DNA of 64,000 nucleotides from contig OY729427.2 of NCBI GenBank assembly GCA_963422375.2, forward strand, positions 128,001-192,000, written 5' to 3'. Under the pieces are notes generated by a model. The model saw only the letters and a list, made by a program, of their open reading frames with translations. It was not told the origin of the DNA and did not search any database. Source of the DNA: Bryobacterales bacterium (GTDB taxonomy: Bacteria > Acidobacteriota > Terriglobia > Bryobacterales > UBA6623). Position 1 is the stretch's first letter, and each line of letters starts with the position of its first letter. The position numbers were made by a program, and so were the translations under genes. Below, one piece after another: positions 7,365-64,000 of this stretch.

Positions 7365-8397
7365 CCTGATTACCAACGAACGTCAGCCGAGGATATGCTA
7401 TACTGGAGGAGGTCGGAAATCTCTGACAGGAAAGGGGCTAGCAGATGAAACGCAATCGCGTGCAATTCCAGAAGGGACTCAGCGCGGGCAAGTTCCTGCA
7501 GCGCTACGGCAGCGAGGGGCCATGCGAGCAGGCCGTCTGCAACGCCCGCTGGCCGGACGGCTTCCGCTGCCCGGAGTGCGGCTCCCGACGGCACTGCCGC
7601 ATCCGCTCCCGCAAGCTCCGGCAGTGCCATGCCTGCCACCGCCGGACCTCCCTCGTCGCCGGCACGATCTTCGCCGCCAGCAAGCTGCCGCTGACCGTCC
7701 GGTTGCTGGCGCTCCACCTGCTGACGCAGGGCCAGCACGGCGTTTCGTCGCTGGAACTGGCGCGGCAGCTGGGGGTCAGCCGGAACACGGCTTGGAAGAT
7801 GAAGCACAAGCTCTTGCAAGTGATGAAGGAGCGCGACGAGCGCCTGCCGCCGGGCGGCATCGTGCAGGTGGACGACGCCTACCGGGGCGGGGAGCGGACC
7901 GGCGGCAAGCGCGGTCGCGGCGCGGCGGGCAAGACGCCGTTCGTGGCCGCCGTGCAGGTCAGCGCCGCCGGCCAGCCGGCAAGGATGCGCCTGAGCAGCG
8001 TGGCGGGCTTCCGCAAGAAGACGCTGGCAGCGTGGGCCGGGCGGCACTTGCAGCCCGGCACGGAGGTGCATTCCGACGGCTTGGCCTGCTTCCGGGGCGT
8101 GGCCGGCGCCGGCTGCGAGCACGTGCCGACCGTCACCGGAGGCGGGAAGCGGAGCTGCGCGGATTCCCGCTTCGTCCGGGTCAACACGATGCTGGGGAAC
8201 GTCAAGCAGTCCCTGGCGGGAACCTGCCATTCGTTCGACGGCAAGCACCTGCCGCGCTACCTCGCCGAGTTCCGCTACCGCTTCAACCGCCGCTACGATC
8301 TCGAGGCGCTGGTCCCCCGCCTGCTCCACGCCTCCGTGCGCACCCCGCCCATGCCTTACCGCCTCCTAACCTTGGCTGAGTCTTGTGGGTAATCAGG
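7365..8397 (+). mobile_element. IS1595-family element IS-A, copy A1 (ISSod11-like)
   Basis: Imperfect ~28-bp TIRs CCTGATTACC...GGTAATCAGG around a single transposase ORF. Confidence 0.92.
7445..8392 (+). CDS. IS1595-family DDE transposase (A1)
   Basis: Zinc ribbon CPECG...CHAC, VQVDDAY, GGKRGRG, HSDG and YLAEFRYRFNRR. Confidence 0.92.
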   Translation: MKRNRVQFQKGLSAGKFLQRYGSEGPCEQAVCNARWPDGFRCPECGSRRHCRIRSRKLRQCHACHRRTSLVAGTIFAASKLPLTVRLLALHLLTQGQHGVSSLELARQLGVSRNTAWKMKHKLLQVMKERDERLPPGGIVQVDDAYRGGERTGGKRGRGAAGKTPFVAAVQVSAAGQPARMRLSSVAGFRKKTLAAWAGRHLQPGTEVHSDGLACFRGVAGAGCEHVPTVTGGGKRSCADSRFVRVNTMLGNVKQSLAGTCHSFDGKHLPRYLAEFRYRFNRRYDLEALVPRLLHASVRTPPMPYRLLTLAESCG

Positions 8398-8630
8398 AAA
8401 GCCTTTTCCCAAGATACGGGCCATACTCAGTCGACTTCCTATTCAGGCTGCCATCATAGCAGCCCAGAGATAGAGTCTTGAATTCTAAAACTTAGGCCTG
8501 CATATTGTGATATACCGTAACTATCTACACAGTATATTGCGTACTTAAATTTGGAAGGCCTCCTTCTTAGCAGACTGCTTGGGAACTCAGTTGCCAGTAC
8601 ATTCTGGCCTGGCCGATCCGAAAAGACTTT
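8398..8630 (-). repeat. Captured MITE core (233 bp), reverse-complement copy of 57537-57569 + 59098-59297
   Basis: Near-identical by eye with a few substitutions; begins AAAGCCTTTTC and ends GAAAAGACTTT, the inner halves of the MITE TIRs. Confidence 0.92.
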
Positions 8631-9675
8631 CCTGATTACCAACGAACGTCAGCCGAGGATATGCTATACTGAAGGAGGTCGGAAACCTCTGACAGGAAAG
8701 GGGATAGCTGATGAAACGCAATCGCGTGCAATTCCAGAAGGGACTCAGCCTGGGCAAGTTCCTGCAGCGCTACGGCAGCGAGGGGCAATGCGAGCAGGCC
8801 GTCTTCAACGCCCGCTGGACGGACGGCTTCCGCTGCCCGGAGTGCGGCTCCCGCCGGCACTGCCGCATCCGCTCCCGCAAGCTCCGGCAGTGCCATGCCT
8901 GCCACCGCCAGAGCTCCCTCGTCGCCGGCACGATCTTCGCCGCCACCCAGCTGCCGCTGACCGTCTGGTTGCTGGCGATCCACCTGCTGACGCAGGGTAA
9001 GCACGGCGTTTCGTCGCTGGAACTGGCGCGGCAGCCGGGCGTGAGCCGGAACACGGCTTGGAAGGTGAAGCACAAGCTCCTGCAAGTGATGAAGGCGCGC
9101 GACGAGCGCGTGCCGCTGCACGGCATCGTGCAGGTGGACGATGCCTACTGGGGCGGGGAGCGGACCGGCGGCCAGCGCGGTCGCGGCGCGGCGGGCAGGA
9201 CGCCGTTCGTCGCCGCCGTGCAGGTCACCGCCGCCGGCCAGCCGGCAAGGATGCGCATGAGCAGCGTGGCGAGCTTGCGCAAGAAGACGCTGGCAGCGTG
9301 GGCCGGGCGGCACTTGCAGCCCGGCACGGAGGTGCATTCCGACGGCCCGGCCTGCTTGCGGGGCGTGGCCGGCGCCGGCTGCGAGCACGTGCCGACCGTC
9401 ACCGGAGGCGGGCAGCGGAGCTGCGGGGATTCCCGCTTCGTCCGGGTCAACGTCCGGGTCAGAACGATGCTGGCGCACGTCAAGCAATCCCTAGCGGGAA
9501 CCTGCCATGCGCTCGACGGCAAGCACCTGCCGCGGTACCTCGCCGAGTTCTGCTACCGCTTCAACCGCCGCTACCACCTGGAGGCGCTGGTCCCCCGCCT
9601 GCTCCACGCCTCCGTGCGCACCCCGCCCAGGCCTTACCGTCTCCTAACCTTGGCTGAGTCTTGTGGGTAATCAGG
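8631..9675 (+). mobile_element. IS1595-family element IS-A, copy A2
   Basis: Same TIRs as A1; carries a 12-bp in-frame duplication (RVNVRV). Confidence 0.92.
8711..9670 (+). CDS. IS1595-family DDE transposase (A2)
   Basis: Close paralogue of the A1 transposase; open frame of 319 aa. Confidence 0.9.
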   Translation: MKRNRVQFQKGLSLGKFLQRYGSEGQCEQAVFNARWTDGFRCPECGSRRHCRIRSRKLRQCHACHRQSSLVAGTIFAATQLPLTVWLLAIHLLTQGKHGVSSLELARQPGVSRNTAWKVKHKLLQVMKARDERVPLHGIVQVDDAYWGGERTGGQRGRGAAGRTPFVAAVQVTAAGQPARMRMSSVASLRKKTLAAWAGRHLQPGTEVHSDGPACLRGVAGAGCEHVPTVTGGGQRSCGDSRFVRVNVRVRTMLAHVKQSLAGTCHALDGKHLPRYLAEFCYRFNRRYHLEALVPRLLHASVRTPPRPYRLLTLAESCG

Positions 9676-53948: not shown

Positions 53949-54892
53949 AGCGTAAGCGGCCCGGCGGCGCCAGCTCGTTCGATCGCGCACGCGAGGAGTG
54001 TCGTACCGTGCCAAGGCACCGTCAGCACCGCTCCGCGGACGTCCCGCGACCCGCCGATGTTGCGGTGACGCGACACTGCTTGCTTAACCACAGGGCCGCG
54101 GCTCAGTCACGGCGCCACGACCGTCCAATGGTCGGCAACATCCGACCAGCTAGGATTGCTTTGGCCCGGCCATGCCGAGTGTACCGCACCTCGGCCGAGA
54201 TCCGGATTCCACTGTTCATGAAGACGATCCATTTCCCTCTCCACCGCACTTCACTGAAGACTTCATTTCACACGCCAGACCCTCATTCTCGGCTTCACCA
54301 CGAGTCTGCGTTGAATCGCCAGCGTCGCCAGTTCTGTCCGAACAAGAACATCCTGTCTCTCACTCCAGCAATAGTAATTGTGCTTCGCCACATTGCCAAG
54401 AACAGCGCTATCACTGCTTCGTTTGATATGATTTCCGATTTCTAGCCATGCTTTCGTCAGGTGGATTGCAATGGGAATTATATATCTGAGTGCCGACAAC
54501 GCCATATCCGACTAGAACTGCTGTGAGCAGGGAGGTGGGTGTCGAGCTGGGGTCATGCGAGTGCGGCCGCGGCGGGCACAGAGGGGTGGGGTGTGGGATC
54601 GTATCTGAATCGAGCCTGCCAGCGGATTTGATGAGGAAGGGACTAGAGAGGCCGCCGCGCATGCCCCGGTTGCCCCGGTTGCCCCGGTGGAACCCGGTTG
54701 GCGGTGGCAGGGCACCCCTTGCAAGCCCTGCGAGGGCCGAAGACAGCGGTTCCCCGGCGCTCGACGGCCTGCATGGACGGTCCGGACCGGACCGGGGTCG
54801 CGCCGGGGCCTTCCGGATCCGGTGCACCCCTCGTACCGAGCGTGCAGCGCGCGCCCGCAGCGGGCTGCCGCGCTCGGCGCGGCGGGCGCCGC

Positions 54893-55849
54893 TCAGGCCG
54901 CGACCGCGGCCTTGCCGGTCAGCTGCCGGCAGGTCAGCGTCCGGCCGACCAGGCCCCGCGCCATGCGCCGCATCCGTTCCGCCGTGTCGCAGTCGCGGTC
55001 GTTGCGCCGTCCCGCGAACTCCGTGAGGTAGCGGCCGAGATGACGGACGCTCATCCGGTGATAGGTTCCGTACAGGCCGCGCTTGAACAGGGACCCAAAC
55101 GATTCGATGCCGTTCGCATGCGCTGCCCCGCGCACGTACTCGCCGCCGGAGTGCCTGACAGCTTCGTGCGAGAACTCCGCCATGCCGGCGCAGGCCGCCG
55201 CCTCGTCGGAGTAGACCTGCGCGCCCGGCGCGACCCGGCCGCGCACGAAGCCCTGCAGGTCGCCCTTGGCGGTGCCCGGCAGCGGCCGCGCGGCCACTGC
55301 GTTCGTGGCGCGGTCCCGCGCCCCCGCCACGGGCGTCTTGCCGACGGGCCCGCGCCCGGCACGGGCCTTCTTCCTCTCGTGCTTGTTGCGCTCCTTGCCG
55401 CCGACGCAGGTCTCGTCCACCTCCACCGGGCCGGCGAACAGGCCCCGATCCCGCTGCCAGCACGCGCGGATGCGGTGCGCCAGGTGCCAGGCCGACTTCC
55501 GGCTGATGCCTAGGTCGCGGTGCAGCTTCATGCTCGAGACGCCCTTGATGCCGGTAGTCAGCAGGAACAGGGCGACGGCCCGGGTGCGGTAGCCGAGCTT
55601 GGTGTCGGCCATCACGCTGCCGGTGCGCACCGAAAAGCGCTTGCCGCAGCCGCGGCAACGGTACGGCATCGAAGGGTGGGCCGCGTCGGACTGCACGCTG
55701 GATCCGCGGCAGCGGGGGCACGCGGGACCGTCCGGCCAGCGCATGGAGGCGAACCACTTTTCCGCGGATTCGTCATCGCGGAACATGGCGATCACTTCCA
55801 TCAATGTGATGCCTTTACGGAACCACTTTCCGGGACCTGATTTCTTCAT
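54893..55849 (-). CDS. IS1595-family transposase (B1, ISPna2-like)
   Basis: CPRC...CRGC, VSSMKLHRDLG, VEVDET, YSDE, NGIESF and YLTEFAGR. Confidence 0.92.
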   Translation of the reverse strand: MKKSGPGKWFRKGITLMEVIAMFRDDESAEKWFASMRWPDGPACPRCRGSSVQSDAAHPSMPYRCRGCGKRFSVRTGSVMADTKLGYRTRAVALFLLTTGIKGVSSMKLHRDLGISRKSAWHLAHRIRACWQRDRGLFAGPVEVDETCVGGKERNKHERKKARAGRGPVGKTPVAGARDRATNAVAARPLPGTAKGDLQGFVRGRVAPGAQVYSDEAAACAGMAEFSHEAVRHSGGEYVRGAAHANGIESFGSLFKRGLYGTYHRMSVRHLGRYLTEFAGRRNDRDCDTAERMRRMARGLVGRTLTCRQLTGKAAVAA

Positions 55850-55872
55850 TTACGGTATCCCCTACTGGAACT

Positions 55873-55902
55873 ATTCTACCAAGAAACACCACAGAATGTC
55901 AA
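55873..55902 (-). promoter_or_regulatory. Sigma70-type transposase promoter in IS-B
   Basis: TTGACA-N18-TAGAAT with extended TG; both boxes are conserved in B2 (58975-59004) and B3 although the spacer differs. Confidence 0.7.
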
Positions 55903-55954
55903 CGGAAAGTCGGAAGAAATATGAAATCTTATTATGGCTTGATAATTTGCCGAC

Positions 55955-55983
55955 TTGATTCCCTCGGCACTCAGATATATAAT
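55955..55983 (+). promoter_or_regulatory. Outward-facing promoter candidate at the B1 end
   Basis: TTGATT-N17-TATAAT pointing at the ATG at 56032. Confidence 0.5.
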
Positions 55984-56444
55984 TCCCCTTGCAATTCCAG
56001 TCCAATCCACTACGACATGAGGTTGGACGTCATGTCAGATACGCGAACTGAGTTGCCAGTTGAAGTCTTCCAAGCACTGAGGAGCGGCTTTTTCCAGGCT
56101 GGCGGGACACCGAAAATCTACAAGATACGAGACAAGAAAAACACTCAAGATGACCCGATCGACGAATACATCCATAGCATTCTTAGTACCAAGCTAGCAC
56201 CTAATATCACTACTACAAAGTCATCTGGACCTCTGATTAACCCTGACATGGTGATCTACCGACCGAAGTCTTGTGATTTCGTTTCACGTACAATCTTAGT
56301 ATCTGATTCCACCAGAATATTCGGATTCGAAGTGAAGAAAATTGAACGGCAGCCTTCTGGTTCCGTGGCCCGGTCATCTGGATTGGACTACAACACAACT
56401 CCGCCATGCGGTACGATGCGCGTACTGAGGGGCGCAAAAGTCTT

Positions 56445-57536
56445 CCTGATTACCCACAAGACTCAGCCAAGGTTAGGAGGCGGTAAGGCCTGGGCGGGGT
56501 GCGCACGGAGGCGTGGAGCAGGCGGGGGACCAGCGCCTCCAGATCGTAGCGGCGGTTGAAGCGGTAGCGGAACTCGGCGAGGTACCGCGGCAAGTGCTTG
56601 CCGTCGAGCGCAGGGCAGGTTCCCGCCAGGGACTGCTTGCCGTTCGCCAGCATCGTGTTGACCCGGACGTTGACCCGGAAGAAGCGGGAATCCCCGCAGC
56701 TCCGCTGCCCGCCTCCGGTGACGGTCGGCACGTGCTCGCAGCCGGCGTCGGCGACGCCCCGGAAGCAGGCCGGGCCGTCGGAATGCACCTCCGTGCCGGG
56801 CTGCAAGTGCCGCCCGGCCCACGCTGCCAGCGTCTTCTTGCGCAAGCTCGCCACGCTGCTCATGCGCATCCTTGCCGGCTGGCCGGCGGCGGTGACCTGC
56901 ACGGCGGCGACGAACGGCGTCCTGCCCGCCGCGCCGCGACCGCGCTTGCCGCCGCGCCGCGACCGCGCTTGCCGCCGCGCCGCGACCGCGCTTGCCGCCG
57001 CGCCGCTCCCCGCCCCGGTAGGCGTCGTCCACCTGCACGATGCCGGCCAGCGGCAGGCGCTCGTCGCGCTCCTTCATCACTTGCAAGAGCTTGTGCTTCA
57101 CCTTCCAAGCCGTGTTCCGGCTCACGCCCAGCTGCCGCGCCAGTTCCAGCGACGAAACGCCGTGCTTACCCTGCGTCAGCAGGTGGATCGCCAGCAACCG
57201 GACGGTCAGCGGCAGCTGGGTGGCGGCGAAGATCGTGCCGGCGACGAGGGAGCTCCGGCGGTGGCAGGCATGGCACTGCCAGAGCTTGCGGGAGCGGATG
57301 CGGCAGTGCCGTCGGGAGCCGCACTCCGGGCAGCGGAAGCCGTCCGGCCAGCGGGCCTTGAAGACGGCCTGCTCGCATGGCCCCTCGCTGCCGTAGCGCT
57401 GCAGGAACTTGCCCAGGTTGAGTCCCTTCTGGAATTGAACGCGATTGCGTTTCAGCTGCTATCCCCTTTCCTATCAGAGATTTCCAACCTCCTTCAGTAT
57501 AGCATATCCTCGGCTGACGTTCGTTGGTAATGCAGG
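56445..57536 (-). mobile_element. IS-A copy A3 with inactivated transposase
   Basis: TSD AAAGTCTT (56437-56444 and 57537-57544); start ATG>CTG, frameshift from a 23-bp triplication, and a 1-bp insertion in the left TIR. Confidence 0.92.
56928..56996. repeat. 23-bp tandem repeat x3 in A3
   Basis: GCCGCGCCGCGACCGCGCTTGCC x3; single copy in the other IS-A elements. Confidence 0.92.
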
Positions 57537-57569
57537 AAAGTCTTTTCGGATCGGCCAGGCCAAAATGTA

Positions 57570-59089
57570 GGGAATTATATATCTGAGTGCCGACAACGCC
57601 ATGTCCGACGAGAACTGCTGTGAGCAGGGAGGTCGGCGTCTGGCTCGGGTCATTCGAATGCGGCCGCGGTAGGCACAGCAAGGTGGGATCGTATCTGAAT
57701 CGAGCCTGCCAGCGGAATTGACGAGGCACGGATTAGAGAGGCCCCCTCGCATGCCCGGTGGAATCCGGTTGGCGGTGGAGGGCACCCCTTGCAAGCCGCT
57801 TGCGTGCCCTGCGAGGGCCGAAGACAGCGGATCCCCGGCGCTCGACGGCCTGCATGGACGGTCCGGGCCGGACGCGGGTCGCGCCGGGGGATTCCAGAGC
57901 CGGCGCGCCCCTCGCACCGAGCGTGAAGCGCACCGAGCGTGAAGAGTGCGTCGGCAGCGGGCTGCGGCGCTCGGCTCGGAGGGCGCCGCTCGGGCCGCGA
58001 CCGCGGCCTTGCCGGCCAGCTGCCGGTAGGTCAGCGTCCGGCCGACCAGGCCCCGCGCCATGCGCCGCATCCGTTCCGCCCTTGTTCCGCCGTGTCGCAG
58101 TCGCGGTCGTTGCACCGTCCCGCGAACTCCGTCAGGTAGCGGCCGAGATGACGGACGCTCATCCGGTGATAGGTTCCGTACAGGCCGCGCTTGAACAGGG
58201 ACCAAAACGACTCGATGCCGTTCGTATGCGCTGCCCCGCGCACGTACTCGCCGCGGGAGTGCCTGACGGCTTCGTGCGGGAACTCCTCCATGCCGGCGCA
58301 GGCCGCCGCCTCGTCGGAGCGGACCTGCGCCCCCGGCGCGACCCGGCCGCGCACGAAGCCCTGCAGGTCGCCCTTGGCGGTGCCCGGCAGCGGCCGCGCG
58401 GCCGCTGCGTTCGTGGCGCGGTCCCGCGCCCCCGCCACGGGCGTCTTGCCGACGGGCCCGCGCCCGGCGCGGGCCTTCTTCCTCTCGTGCTGGTTGCGTT
58501 CCTTGCCGCCGACGTAGGTCTCTTCCACCTCCACCGGGCCGGCGAACAGGCCCTGATGCCGCTCCCGGCACGCGCGGATGCGGTGCGCCAGGTGCCAGGC
58601 CGACTTCCGGCTGATGCCCGGATCGCGGTGCAGCTTCATGCTCGAGACACCCTTGATGCCAGTGGTCAGCAGGAACAGGGCGACGGCCCGGGTGCGGTAG
58701 CCGAGCTTGGTGTCGACCATCACGCTGCCGGTGCGCACGGAAAAGCGCTTGCCGCGGCAACGGTACGGCATCGAAGGGTGGGCCGCGCCGGACTGCACGC
58801 TGGAGCCGCGGCAGTGGGGGCATACCGGACCGTCGGGCCAGCGCATGGAGGCGAACCACTTTTCCGCGGATTCGTCATCGCGGAACATGGCGATCACTTC
58901 AATCAGAGTGATGCCTTTACGAAACTACTTCCCGGGACCTTTCTGCTTCATAGACGACCTCATATATCGGAACTATTCTACCAAAATAATCCACCGACTG
59001 TCAACAGATCTCCGGAAGAAATATGAAATTAATTTATGGACTGATAATTTGCAAAATCGGTTGCCTCGGCACTCAGATATATAATTCCC
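57570..59089 (-). mobile_element. IS-B copy B2 inside the MITE core, inactivated transposase
   Basis: TSD AAAATGTA (57562-57569 and 59090-59097); early TGG>TAG, 6-bp deletion in the zinc ribbon and an 11-bp 3' insertion. Confidence 0.92.
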
Positions 59090-59297
59090 AAAATGTACTG
59101 GCAACTGAGTTCCCAAGCAGTCTATCAAGAAGGAGGCCTTCCAAATTCAAGTACGCAATATACTGTGTAGATAGTTACGGTATATCACAATATGCAGGCC
59201 TAAGTTTTAGAATTCAAGACTCTATCTCTGGGCTGCTATGATGGCAGCCTGAATAGGAAGTCGACTGAGTATGGCCCGTATCTTGGGAAAAGGCTTT

Positions 59298-60330
59298 CCT
59301 GATTACCCACAAGACTCAGCCAAGGCTAGGAGGCGGTAAGGCATGGGCGGGGTGCGCACGGAGGCGTGGAGCAGGCGGGGGACCAGCGCCTCCAGATCGT
59401 AGCGGCGGTTGAAACGGTAGTGGAACTCGGCGAGGTACCGCGGCAGGTGCTTGCCGTCGAGCGCATGGCAGGTTCCCGCCAGGGACTGCTTGACGTGCGC
59501 CAGCATCGTGTTGACCCGGAAGAAGCGGGAATCCTCGCAGCTCCGCTGCCCGCCTCCGGTGACGGTCGGCACGTGCTCGCAGCCGGCGCCGGCCACGCCC
59601 CGCAAGCAGGCCGGGCCGTCGGAATGCACCTCCGTGCCGGGCTGCAGGTGCCGCCCGGCCCACGCTGCCAGCGTCTTCTTGCGCAAGCCCGTCACGCCGC
59701 TCATGCGCATCCTTGCCGGCTGGCCGGCGGCGCTGACCTGCACGGCGGCCACGAACGGCGTCTTGCCCGCCGCGCCGCGACCGCGCTTGCCGCCGCTCCG
59801 CTCCCCGCCCCGGTAAGCGTCGTCCACCTGCACGATGCCGCCCGGCGGCAGGCGCTCGTCGCGCTCCTTCATCACTTGCAAGAGCTTGTGCTTCATCTTC
59901 CAAGCCGTGTTCCGGCTGACGCCCGGCTGCCGCGCCAGTTCCAGCGACGAAACGCCGTGCTTGCCCTGCGTCAGCAGGTGGAGCGCCAGGAACCGGACGG
60001 TCAGCGGCAGCTTGGTGGCGGCGAAGATCGTGCCGGCGACGAGGGAGGTCCGGCGGTGGCAGGCATGGCACTGCCGGAGCTTGCGGGAGCGGATGCGGCA
60101 GTGCCGGCGGGAGCCGCACTCCGGGCAGCGCAAGCCGTCCGGCCAGCGGGCCTTGAAGACGGCCTGCTCGCATGGCCCCTCGCTGCCGTAGCGCTGCAGG
60201 AACTTGCCCGGGCTGAGTCCCTTCTGGAATTACACGCGATTGCGTTTCATCTGCTATCCCCTTTCCTGTCAGAGATTTCCGACCTCCTCCAGTATAGCAT
60301 ATCCTCGGCTGACGTTCGTGGGTAATCAGG
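59298..60330 (-). mobile_element. IS-A copy A4 with an early nonsense codon in the transposase
   Basis: TSD AAGGCTTT (59290-59297 and 60331-60338); CAA>TAA at codon 7. Confidence 0.92.
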
Positions 60331-60829
60331 AAGGCTTTTGCGCCTCTCAGTATATGACTCCTCAAGCAAGATTCTTGACATCAAGGGATTCTACCTATTC
60401 CTGTGCCAAGAACAACAAGCAACTTCCAGTTCCACTTATTTTGTTAGTGCCCTCGTTCTTTGTGACGGCGACTTGTTGAATGAAGACTTTGACTACTATG
60501 TCTCAATCATGGAACGTCGATCAAAGGAAATCCAACTCGGCTCATACGGAGACGGTGCCAATAGGATCCGTCCGATGATGATTTTTGCGAATCCGCTGGG
60601 AGCATCGTTTCTAGATTGGCACTCGACACTGATCCATGATTCATCTGATCTCGATTCCAAGCACGATAACCTACAGAAAGTCGGCGGAATTGAACGTACA
60701 GTCTCGACAACGAATGACGGACAACGTGCAACCAGAGAGTTCCATTGCTATCGGGAAATCCGCGACCTGCCAAACATCGCTGCTGCTGATGCAAATCCAC
60801 TGTTTCATGAGATTGACCCGTTCCCAACC

Positions 60830-61700
60830 GAGACGCTCGCGGTTGCGCACCCGGGCCGGCAGCAGGAAGGCCAGCACCAGCAGGGTCGAGTGCAGGCCGT
60901 AGAAGCCCTTGCCGACCCTCAGCGCGCCCAGGTGGCCGAGCAAGCCGGCCTGCAACAGGGCGGGCAGGGCCGCCAGGACGCCGCCCTCGGCCACCGCCGC
61001 GGCCGGCGCGAAGCTCGGAGCACGCTCCTCCAACTGGCCGAGACTGGCCAAGGCGCGACCCTGCGAGTCGCAGGTGGCCCGGCCCCGGGGCACGATCGCG
61101 TCGCGGCGGCTGCGCTCCTCGCGCCCCGGAGCCGGCGGTTGCTCCGCGACACTCGCCGCCCCGGCGGGTGCGGGCTCTTTTTCGGTCGCGGGGGCCTCCA
61201 CGGTCGCGGGGGCCTTCTCCGTCGCGGGCACCTCGGGGTCGCCAGGGCCTGCTCGGCGGGGAGCGCCGCGGCGAGCGCCGGGATGCCGGGCAGGCGACCG
61301 ATCCGCTTGTACTGGCGCAGGGTCTCGTAGCACGCGCCCAGCTGGCGCGCCGCGCGGCGCAGGACGTCCTCGTCCTCGATCCCGTGCCGACGGCGCGGGC
61401 GGCGCGGGCAGTCGAAACCGGCCGGGCCCTACTGCTTGAGGCGCTCCACGTCCCGGCGCACCGTGCGCGCGCAGACCCCGCCAGCCCGCGCCAGTTGCGC
61501 CGGCGTGGCCAGCTGCATGTGCGCCAAGTGCGCCAAGTGCGCCATGCAGCGGCGAGCGGCGCGGCGGTCGTCCGCTGCTTGCATGTCGAGCGGCGAGATA
61601 TCGAGGTAGTAGTACACGCGGTCGCCGTCCCGGAGCATGCTCGGGCGCTGGTTGACGGGGGTGGCCTCGGCGGGCTGCAGGCCGAGCGATCCGGGCACGC
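60830..61700 (-). pseudogene. N-terminal remnant of a large HTH-containing putative transposase (unclassified IS)
   Basis: EATPVNQ...VYYYL...AQLARAGGVCARTVRR...*GPAGF, then ERSRRDA...GGVLAALPALLQAGLL...GFYGLHSTLLVLAF; internal stop, frameshift and truncation. Confidence 0.65.
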
Positions 61701-61949: not shown

Positions 61950-64000
61950 GGGAATTATATATCTGAGTGCCGACAACGCCATGTCCGACGAGAACTGCTC
62001 TGATCAGGGAGGTCGGCGTCTGGCTCGGGTCATTCGAATGCGGCCGCGGTAGGCACGGAAAAGTGGGATCGTATCTGAATCGAACCTGCCAGCGGAATGG
62101 ACGAGGCACGGATAAGAGAGGCCCCCCTCGCATGCCCCGATGGAATCCGGTTGGCGGTGGAGGGCACCCCTTGCAAGGGGAATTATATATCTGAGTGCCG
62201 ACAACGCCATGTCCGACGAGAACTGCTGTGAGCAGGGAGGTCGGCGTCTGGCTCGGGTCATTCGAATGCGGCCGCGGTAGGCACAGCAAGGTGGGATCGT
62301 ATCTGAATCGAGCCTGCCAGCGGAATGGACGAGGCACGGATAAGAGAGGCGCCCTCGCATGCCCGGTGGAATCCGGTTGGCGGTGGAGGGCACCCTTTGC
62401 AAGCCGATTGCGTGCCCTGCGAGGGCCGAAGACAGCGGATCCCCGGCGCTCGACGGCCTGCATGAACGGTCCGGGCCGGACGCGGGTCGCGCCGGGGGAT
62501 TCCAGATCCGGCGCGCCCCTCGCACCGAGCGTGAAGCGCACCGAGCGTGAAGAGTGCGTCGGCAGCGGGCTGCGGCGCTCAGCTCGGAGGGCGCCGCTCA
62601 GGCCGCGACTGCGGCCTTGCCGGTCAGCTGCCGGTAGGTCAGCGTCCGGCCGACCAGGCCCCGCGCCATGCGCCGCATCCGTTCCGCCCTTGTTCCGCCG
62701 TGTCGCAGTCGCGGTCGTTGCACCGTCCCGCGAACTCCGTGAGGTAGCGGCCGAGATGACGGACGCTCATCCGGTGATAGGTTCCGTACAGGCCGCGCTT
62801 GAACAGGGACCAAAACGACTCGATGCCGTTCGTATGCGCCGCCCCGCGCACGTACTCGCCGCCGGAGTGCTTGACGGCTTCGTGCGGAAACTCCGCCATG
62901 CCGGCGTAGGCCGCCGCCTCGTCGGAGCGGAGCTGCGCGCCCGGCGCGACCCGGCCGCGCACGAAGCCCTGCAGGTCGCCCTTGGTGGTGCCCGGCAGTG
63001 GCCGCGCGGCCACTGCGTTCGTGGCGCGGTCCCGCGCCCCCGCCACGGGCGTCTTGCCGACGGGCCCGCGCCCGGCGCGGGCCTTCTTGCTCTCGTGCTG
63101 GTTGCGCTCCTTGCCGCCGACGCAGGTCTCGTCCACCTCCACCGGGCCGGCGAACAGGCCCTGATGCCGCTTCCGGCACGCGCGGATGCGGTGCGCCAGG
63201 TGCCAGGCCGACTTCTGGCTGATGCCCAGGTCGCGGTGCAGCTTCATACTTGAGACGCCCTTGATGCCGGTAGTCAACAGGAACAGGGCGACGGCCCGGG
63301 TGCGGTAGCCGAGCTTGGTGTCGGCCATCACGCTGCCGGTGCGCACGGAAAAGCGCCTGCCGCAGCCGCGGCAACGGTACGGCATCGAAGGGTGGGCCGT
63401 GCCGGACTGCACGCTGGATCCGCGGCAGAAGGGGCATACCGGACCGTCGGTCCAGCGCACGGAGGCGAACCACTTTTCCGCGGATTCGTCATCGCGGAAC
63501 ATGGCGATCACTTCAATCGGAGTGATGCCTTTACGAAACCACTTCCCGGGACCTTTCTGCTTCATATACGACCTCACATATCGGAACTATTCTACCAAAA
63601 TAATCCACCGACTGTCAACAGATCTCCGGAAGAAATATGAAATTAATTTATGGACTGATAATTTGCAAAATCGGTTGCCTCGGCACTCAGATATATAATT
63701 CCCCTTGCAAGCCGATTGCGTGCCCTCCGAGGGCCGAAGACAGCGGATCCCCGGCGCTCGACGGCCTGCATGGACGGTCCGGGCCGGACGCGGGTCGCGC
63801 CGGGGGATTCCAGATCCGGCGCGCCCCTCGCACCGAGCGTGCAGCGCATCGAGCGTGAAGAGTGCGTCGGCAGCGGGCTGCGGCGCTCAGCTCGGAGGGC
63901 GCCGCTCGGGCCGCGACCGCGGCCTTGCCGGTCAGCTGCCGGCAGGTCAGCGTCCGGCCGACCAGGCCCCGCGCCATGCGCCGCATCTGTTCCGCCGTGT
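61950..64000 (-). mobile_element. IS-B copy B4 (outer copy, runs off the window), interrupted by B3
   Basis: TIR starts at 61950; the IS-B sequence resumes at 63704 after the nested copy. Confidence 0.9.
62178..63703 (-). mobile_element. IS-B copy B3 nested in B4
   Basis: TSD CTTGCAAG (62170-62177 and 63704-63711); the transposase from 63565 has the same 11-bp 3' frameshifting insertion as B2. Confidence 0.93.

Follow-up and report, generated by a model that had tools for sequence, protein, structure and literature searches.

What allows a short element that encodes no transposase to settle inside a gene and then to collect further mobile elements in its own ends? The question is posed by positions 56423-60352 of a 64,000-nucleotide stretch of a Bryobacterales genome (contig OY729427.2, positions 128,001 to 192,000; hereafter the window), in which a miniature inverted-repeat transposable element (MITE) of 257 bp interrupts a host gene and is itself interrupted by three insertion sequences (ISs), namely two copies of an element here called IS A and one of an element called IS B. 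We consider it highly probable that the MITE is a non-autonomous element with IS630-type ends, likely spread in trans, and that a site in its terminal inverted repeat (TIR) has been hit repeatedly by an IS1595-family element, likely through the target preference of the latter.

Results

A nest of four elements

Positions 56423-60352 hold four nested elements, and the three ISs among them each have an exact 8-bp duplication. Once these IS1595-family insertions are excised in silico, two TA dinucleotides enclose a sequence of 257 bp, closed by 23-bp TIRs whose two mismatches are both G-T on the + strand (Table 1). A hidden element of this length, with a TA duplication, 23-bp TIRs and the same coordinates, had been proposed in an initial annotation made from the letters of the window, and all of these features hold. 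The halves of the interrupted host gene match residues 1-131 (60% identity) and 129-285 (57%) of one intact 311-aa homolog; because they read in frame across a single TA and match consecutive parts of that homolog, the boundaries assigned to the MITE are right. The element was also correctly described as lacking a transposase, since its six-frame translation gave no hit and contains no long open reading frame, and scans of one intact copy for promoters and terminators returned 0 and 0.

Both IS A and IS B have the characters of the IS1595 family, comprising an ISXO2-like DDE transposase, an N-terminal zinc ribbon and an 8-bp duplication; for the first copy of IS A (IS A1) the family is taken from the assignment of the second (IS A2), with which it shares blocks of 95-96% identity. 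The target of IS B (57562-57569) carries a private G-to-A change that is present in both duplicated copies, and the change therefore predates the insertion of IS B.

Table 1. Coordinates within the window of the nested elements, the interrupted gene and the related composite transposon.
Feature	Position	Strand	Evidence
Host gene, 5′ half, ~300-aa conserved hypothetical protein	56017..56424	+	60 longer homologs
TA target duplication, left copy	56423..56424	.	Gene halves in frame across one TA
MITE positions 1-20, outer left TIR, equivalent to IS630 3′ end	56425..56444	+	
IS A copy 1 (IS A1), IS1595 family, frameshifted, in TIR positions 13-20	56445..57536	-	8-bp duplication AAAGTCTT
MITE positions 21-45, remaining left TIR and last-transposase-codon remnant (- strand)	57545..57569	+	
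IS B, second IS1595-family element, in MITE positions 38-45	57570..59089	-	Duplication AAAATGTA; NF033547 149 bits, PF12762
MITE positions 46-245, interior with four small stems and inner right TIR	59098..59297	+	
IS A copy 2 (IS A2), IS1595 family, at mirror position of right TIR	59298..60330	-	Duplication AAGGCTTT; NF033547 183 bits
MITE positions 246-257, outer right TIR	60339..60350	+	
TA target duplication, right copy	60351..60352	.	
Host gene, 3′ half	60353..60835	+	Match to intact homolog
Composite transposon (IS A - MITE core - IS A; outer TIRs absent)	7365..9675	-	Own 8-bp duplication AAGGGAAA

A MITE family with a resident IS630 partner

The further TA-flanked copies expected of a mobile element are present. 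In the source genome (6.0 Mb, 67% GC), 13 MITE core matches of more than 100 nt are 92-100% identical to the window copy, and three uninterrupted 257-bp copies lie elsewhere. At ten loci, whose ends were matched up by hand, the element stands between two TAs and the flanking sequences are unrelated; TA also occurs at 28/28 MITE-type outer termini, a count obtained with a search pattern that itself required TA. Being short and dispersed, with TIRs, a target duplication, a clean empty site and no transposase, the element has the attributes of a bacterial MITE.

An IS630-type partner, likewise anticipated by the initial annotation, resides in the same genome: TIR-like pairs 1153 bp apart flank a 346-aa IS630 transposase (NF033545, 194 bits against a cut-off of 100), for which an open copy lies at C3:80908-81945, and one resident copy has the acidic triad D176/D254/E293. 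The first 61 nt of the MITE (positions 1-61) are 75-80% identical to the 3′ end of the resident IS630, the last transposase codons are kept (EPSCQYILA in the MITE, EPDCKYILA in IS630), and the TIRs agree at 20/23 and 18/23 positions. Beyond the TIR, homology was seen at this 3′ end; the 5′ side and the interior show no significant similarity to 17 transposase N-termini and eight element 5′ ends. The inner MITE TIR is matched better by an IS630 of species G012 than by the resident one. On these similarities, the MITE likely descends from a sister lineage of IS630 that is no longer present. An IS630 transposase likely spread the MITE in trans, by analogy with RUP of Streptococcus pneumoniae (107 bp, 108 copies), for which mobilisation in trans by IS630-Spn1 is itself deduced from the likeness of the TIRs (PMC2229807).

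Descent of the MITE interior from a decayed transposase N-terminus was considered, after two look-alike peptides had been recognised by eye, and set aside as unproven: of 1000 shuffles, 287 equalled the best score over the 17 N-termini, sense-direction DNA alignments to the eight 5′ ends had z ≤1.2, and a profile built from 19 proteins gave no match. Two observations concern IS630 relatives in other genomes. All four IS630 copies of G012 (L061, L067, L072, L077) carry a TGA six codons downstream of the apparent ATG, which may reflect a fixed pseudogene, a start further downstream or recoding. In genome G023, a different TA-flanked MITE of ~110 bp with IS630-type TIRs occurs in at least seven copies (L109, L111, L113, L116, L119, L122, L125, position 1501 on), its interior unrelated to that of the 257-bp MITE.

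The MITE is one more IS630-type MITE, apparently confined to one species. Its core was not found in 60 relatives, its TIR pattern was found in 0/400 genomes of the phylum, searches in viral contigs, JGI metagenomes, plasmids and phages gave nothing, and a scan of metagenomes with the IS630 protein was empty. As the initial annotation had supposed, the MITE matched no known element in Rfam or the collections searched. In a collection of genome contigs, the TIR pattern has 15 matches, 11 of which are ends of Bryobacterales IS630 elements, while four match the MITE over 18-20 nt only. Parts of the MITE are contained in 12 of the 22 public sequencing runs listed, with no RNA run among the holders listed, and contigs from four public runs (four studies) carry it, at ≥95% identity in most pieces.

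A recurrent IS A site in IS630-type TIRs

Genome-wide, IS A is represented by 192 ends that form 85 pairs, 50 of them with an exact 8-bp duplication. From 36 unique sites we derived a symmetric target motif, CA-WW-N4-WW-TG, or CA-W-N6-W-TG in a looser form. In the remaining 35 pairs the duplications do not match, and a further 22 ends have no mate, as though IS A copies frequently rearranged with each other; at several places orphan TIR ends adjoin IS A, suggesting that these ends arose by IS A-mediated rearrangement.

Among 38 IS630-type termini, IS A is found in 14 of MITE type and one hybrid, and 13 of MITE type and 10 of the resident IS630 are empty; that is, 14 of the 27 MITE-type outer ends are occupied. 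The insertion falls at TIR positions 13-20 (14-21 at two ends), in both orientations and in both TIRs. Taken together, the two TIRs, two orientations and two registers require at least six separate insertion events. Copies of one junction class share 0-1 rare variants in 24/25 pairs. Counted from the IS A side, an IS630-type TIR begins at an offset of 20-21 from 17 of the 192 ends, two of these TIRs belonging to other IS630 lineages, and 28 of the 192 ends lie at IS630-type TIR junctions in the genome, so that targeting is not dedicated to TIRs. The same junctions occur in runs X9 and X11 from other studies, where they may be inherited.

A corresponding position is used in a second species, represented by G023. 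We examined 33 of the 54 end-pattern matches listed there, of which 27 are IS1595-like by their inner sequence, with TIR position judged by eye; 13 of these 27 ends, and 10 of the 18 among them with at most one mismatch, occupy the equivalent offset in another IS630 TIR. The IS1595 proteins concerned are only 37-69% identical over fragments. Two IS1595-like ends (L195, L202) immediately flank an IS630 TIR on its outer side, so that the 8-bp target includes the TA, in a second register at the same ends. In G025, which has no match to the IS630 protein, 0/13 genuine IS1595-type ends, of 20 fetched, are in such TIRs, and one further junction is ambiguous.

Occupation of both TIRs has a second aspect. 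The MITE copy at 56423-60352 has IS A in both, and elsewhere in the window an IS A - MITE core - IS A unit (7365-9675) has a duplication of its own. IS B is absent from this unit, its MITE haplotype is the same as that of the copy at 56423-60352, and the two loci constitute the only same-class IS A pair with three shared rare variants. From these sequence relationships, the MITE core likely moved to 7365-9675 as cargo of an IS1595 composite transposon.

Sequence preference, copying and guidance

The TIR site matches the IS A target motif, and the hotspot probably results from the sequence preference of IS1595. A second hotspot is not terminal at all: an internal site of another multi-copy repeat is occupied in 6 of 43 copies, and 15 empty copies lack the TG flank (one copy of the repeat lies at C2:414096). 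Consistent with the same preference, the TIRs of the resident IS630 have G at duplication position 7 and are occupied in 0/10 cases. On a 12-bp weight matrix, the TIR site scores 10.2-10.7 bits, and 995 empty sites lie within one bit of it, as against 13 occupied unique sites. We infer direct readout of the sequence and probably of DNA shape, beyond what a position-independent matrix captures.

Several results weigh against part of this account. The matrix accounts only partly for the hotspot: (i) two sites inside the MITE score higher than the TIR site (11.8 vs 10.7 bits) and are empty in 12 and 11 copies, and (ii) these belong to a set of 270 sites within repeats that score similarly and are unoccupied (303 after the two TIR sites are removed from training), so that the neutrality of repeats explains the hotspot only in part. 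The IS A tree is star-like, with 11 of 71 branches well supported, and a one-burst spread of MITE::IS A composites is therefore possible within a junction class; in addition, Fisher p values overstate the evidence. As regards the origin of the MITE, no direct parent is in the genome, since the TIRs of the MITE and of the resident IS630 disagree at 3-5 of 23 positions, the open IS630 copies are drifting (89-93% aa identity to each other), and no source was traced for ~170 nt of the MITE interior.

These results give some room to an alternative that we nevertheless hold to be unlikely, in which the hotspot is mostly an echo of a few MITE::IS A composites copied as units, the duplication having rebuilt the outer 20 bp of the TIR. 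Copying of this kind has one example at 7365-9675, where haplotype and rare IS A variants are shared, though that unit moved on IS A ends; some MITE cores with an occupied right TIR share single variants, and the star-like tree is compatible with such copying. It is opposed by the minimum of six junction classes, by identities within classes (0.942-0.966) that show no excess over the mean (0.957), and by recurrence of the site in other TIR lineages and species.

Slightly less probable again is steering of IS1595 to IS630-type ends, whether by the IS630 transposase, by a host protein or through an evolved safe-haven preference. Such guidance would explain why 14 of 27 MITE-type ends are occupied when equal-scoring sites within the MITE and other repeats are empty, and why one offset recurs both in G023 and in three lineages of TIR in the present genome despite the divergence of the IS1595 proteins. 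However, ~85% of the 192 IS A ends are at other places, and G025 elements show similar flanks without any IS630. Guidance by an IS630 protein in particular is disfavoured because the TIRs of the resident IS630, the expected best binders of its transposase, are empty, because a non-terminal hotspot exists, and because in G023, where at least 242 IS630 TIRs match CA-W..W-TG perfectly, no more than about a dozen are occupied. We give a similarly low probability to the strongest version of this idea, that an IS1595 clade of these Bryobacterales is a specialised parasite of IS630 ends, steered to TIR positions 13-20. If true, the duplication would rebuild the outer 20 bp of the host element, making the site harmless, and the parasite could ride with its host or disarm it; the host core would be usable as cargo of a composite transposon, and the case would be one of transposon-on-transposon targeting by a DDE rather than an RNA-guided enzyme. 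Sequence preference of IS1595 remains the reading that we adopt below.

Folding of the MITE

The initial annotation had also assigned the MITE a strand-specific fold under selection as RNA or single-stranded DNA (ssDNA), and this claim was not borne out. Its premises stand for the window copy and fail in part for the family. Both TIR mismatches are indeed G-U pairs on the + strand of the window copy, and the pair at position 17/241 is G-U in 3/12 copies and Watson-Crick in the others. Likewise, the four stems occur at 59129-59141, 59158-59185, 59203-59221 and 59231-59249, and two are not a property of the family: all pairs of AGTTTT/AAGACT and of GGCTGCTA/TGGCAGCC form in no copies but the two of the window, the other 10 of 12 copies breaking two pairs and one pair, respectively. 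Comparisons among copies use 12 aligned sequences, the truncated thirteenth being excluded.

Folding energies of the interior and their strand asymmetry are at chance. Relative to shuffles, interior z values are -1.35 (+) and -0.97 (-) for the window copy and -0.31 (+) and -0.84 (-) for the family majority sequence, and the difference E(+) minus E(-) has z of -0.11 and +0.42. The whole MITE folds equally on both strands (z -4.7 / -4.8), an excess that is due to the TIRs. The covariation analysis that the annotation had called for revealed a compensatory change in 0/28 stem pairs, with a covariation score of 0.023 against 0.022 in shuffled alignments; stem columns are as variable as the rest (13/56 vs 24/138 elsewhere, p 0.42), and Rfam gave only sub-threshold snoRNA and sRNA matches. 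Because mean column identity among the 12 copies is 98% and the power of the covariation analysis is correspondingly low, selection on RNA is to be regarded as unsupported rather than disproved.

Selection of the interior as a + strand RNA or ssDNA structure that acts on the processing of transcripts, a role suggested for Correia/NEMIS and ERIC, is accordingly the least probable of the alternatives, and we judge it very unlikely. In its favour, (i) the window copy forms two hairpins of at least nine pairs on the + strand and none on the - strand (0.2 on average in shuffles; P 0.02 without correction, in one test out of 16), (ii) the three changes in stems 3 and 4 that distinguish the two copies of the window all make pairs, and (iii) a 10-bp stem at MITE positions 106-133 is 98% paired across the 12 copies. 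However, the majority sequence has one long hairpin only (P 0.15), the main stem is also broken by variants in other samples, and the energy, covariation and Rfam results above offer nothing beyond chance or near threshold. Nor do the two TIR mismatches carry weight, since any transition in an inverted repeat reads as G-U on one strand and two on the same strand constitute a one-in-two event. We therefore attribute the hairpins to stems arising by chance and to the folding back of the TIRs that every MITE shows, without a selected RNA function.

Discussion

A proposed mechanism for the nest

The observations would fit the following course. An IS630 of a sister lineage would have lost its interior and kept both TIRs and the last ~10 codons; an IS630 transposase may then have cut and pasted the resulting MITE into TA sites. 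The conserved CAAAAGTCTTTT block of the TIR would be read by the IS1595 transposase as a good and dispensable target, and once both ends had been hit, two IS1595 copies could carry the MITE core as cargo.

Relation to known elements

Insertion of one mobile element into the ends of another has precedents in the insertion of IS231 into the ends of Tn4430 and, reportedly, in the targeting of Tn21-family TIRs by IS4321/IS5075 (Partridge and Hall, 2003). As with the latter pair, IS A is an IS that takes up a constant place within a different element's terminal repeat; IS4321/IS5075 are IS1111-family elements, RNA-guided and near-exclusive in their targets (PMC11187229). Unlike these, IS A is a DDE element of the IS1595 family with an 8-bp duplication and a loose motif, and most of its copies lie elsewhere.

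A second comparison is with ISEc69, an IS1595 element with published 8-bp duplications with A/T at positions 1, 2, 7 and 8 (PMC7835479). The IS A duplication has A/T at the same positions, and two direct copies form a composite transposon, as in Tn7052 (PMC7835479). The ISEc69 sites in that description are AT-rich throughout and the 23 given are all different (PMC7835479), whereas IS A adds a preference for CA...TG flanks and has recurrent hotspots. A literature search that covered neither subscription papers nor ISfinder and TnCentral found nothing on IS1595 elements targeting IS630 ends.

The MITE itself is closest to RUP in being short and non-coding, with a TA duplication and TIRs related to a co-resident IS630 (PMC2229807). 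It differs in length (257 vs 107 bp), in number (13 cores vs 108 copies) and in having 23-bp TIRs, a comparison of descriptions rather than of sequences, and whereas RUP is described there as inserting into other IS elements, the 257-bp MITE is itself the target. With Correia/NEMIS and ERIC it shares TA ends and, if transcribed, a stem-loop closed by the TIRs; RNA-level effects are reported for those elements (PMC2229807), whereas selection on structure is unsupported for the MITE.

The useful part of these results is the CA-W-N6-W-TG preference of one IS1595 element, obtained from 36 natural sites, together with a fixed-position hotspot in IS630 terminal repeats of two species. They illustrate how IS-rich, symbiont-type genomes build nested stacks and new composite transposons from each other's ends, and they provide a simple, testable case for distinguishing hotspots at element ends that arise by sequence match from those that arise by guidance.

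The interrupted gene and its surroundings

The host gene is of low GC content, with ~300-aa homologs at 43-61% identity, and its product had no Pfam, NCBIfam or PADLOC match. The protein contains a PD...EVKK motif, which we take to be reminiscent of PD-(D/E)XK nucleases. A kinship of the homolog with DnaK was considered, and the matches, which are weak (E ~1e-4), were taken as chance. The 3′ end of the gene is seemingly cut by a further IS near 60836. More generally, the last 10 kb of the window contains stacked IS1595 copies of the IS B type (several, at 54473-55987, 57570-59089 and 61950-63703), one nested in the end of another.

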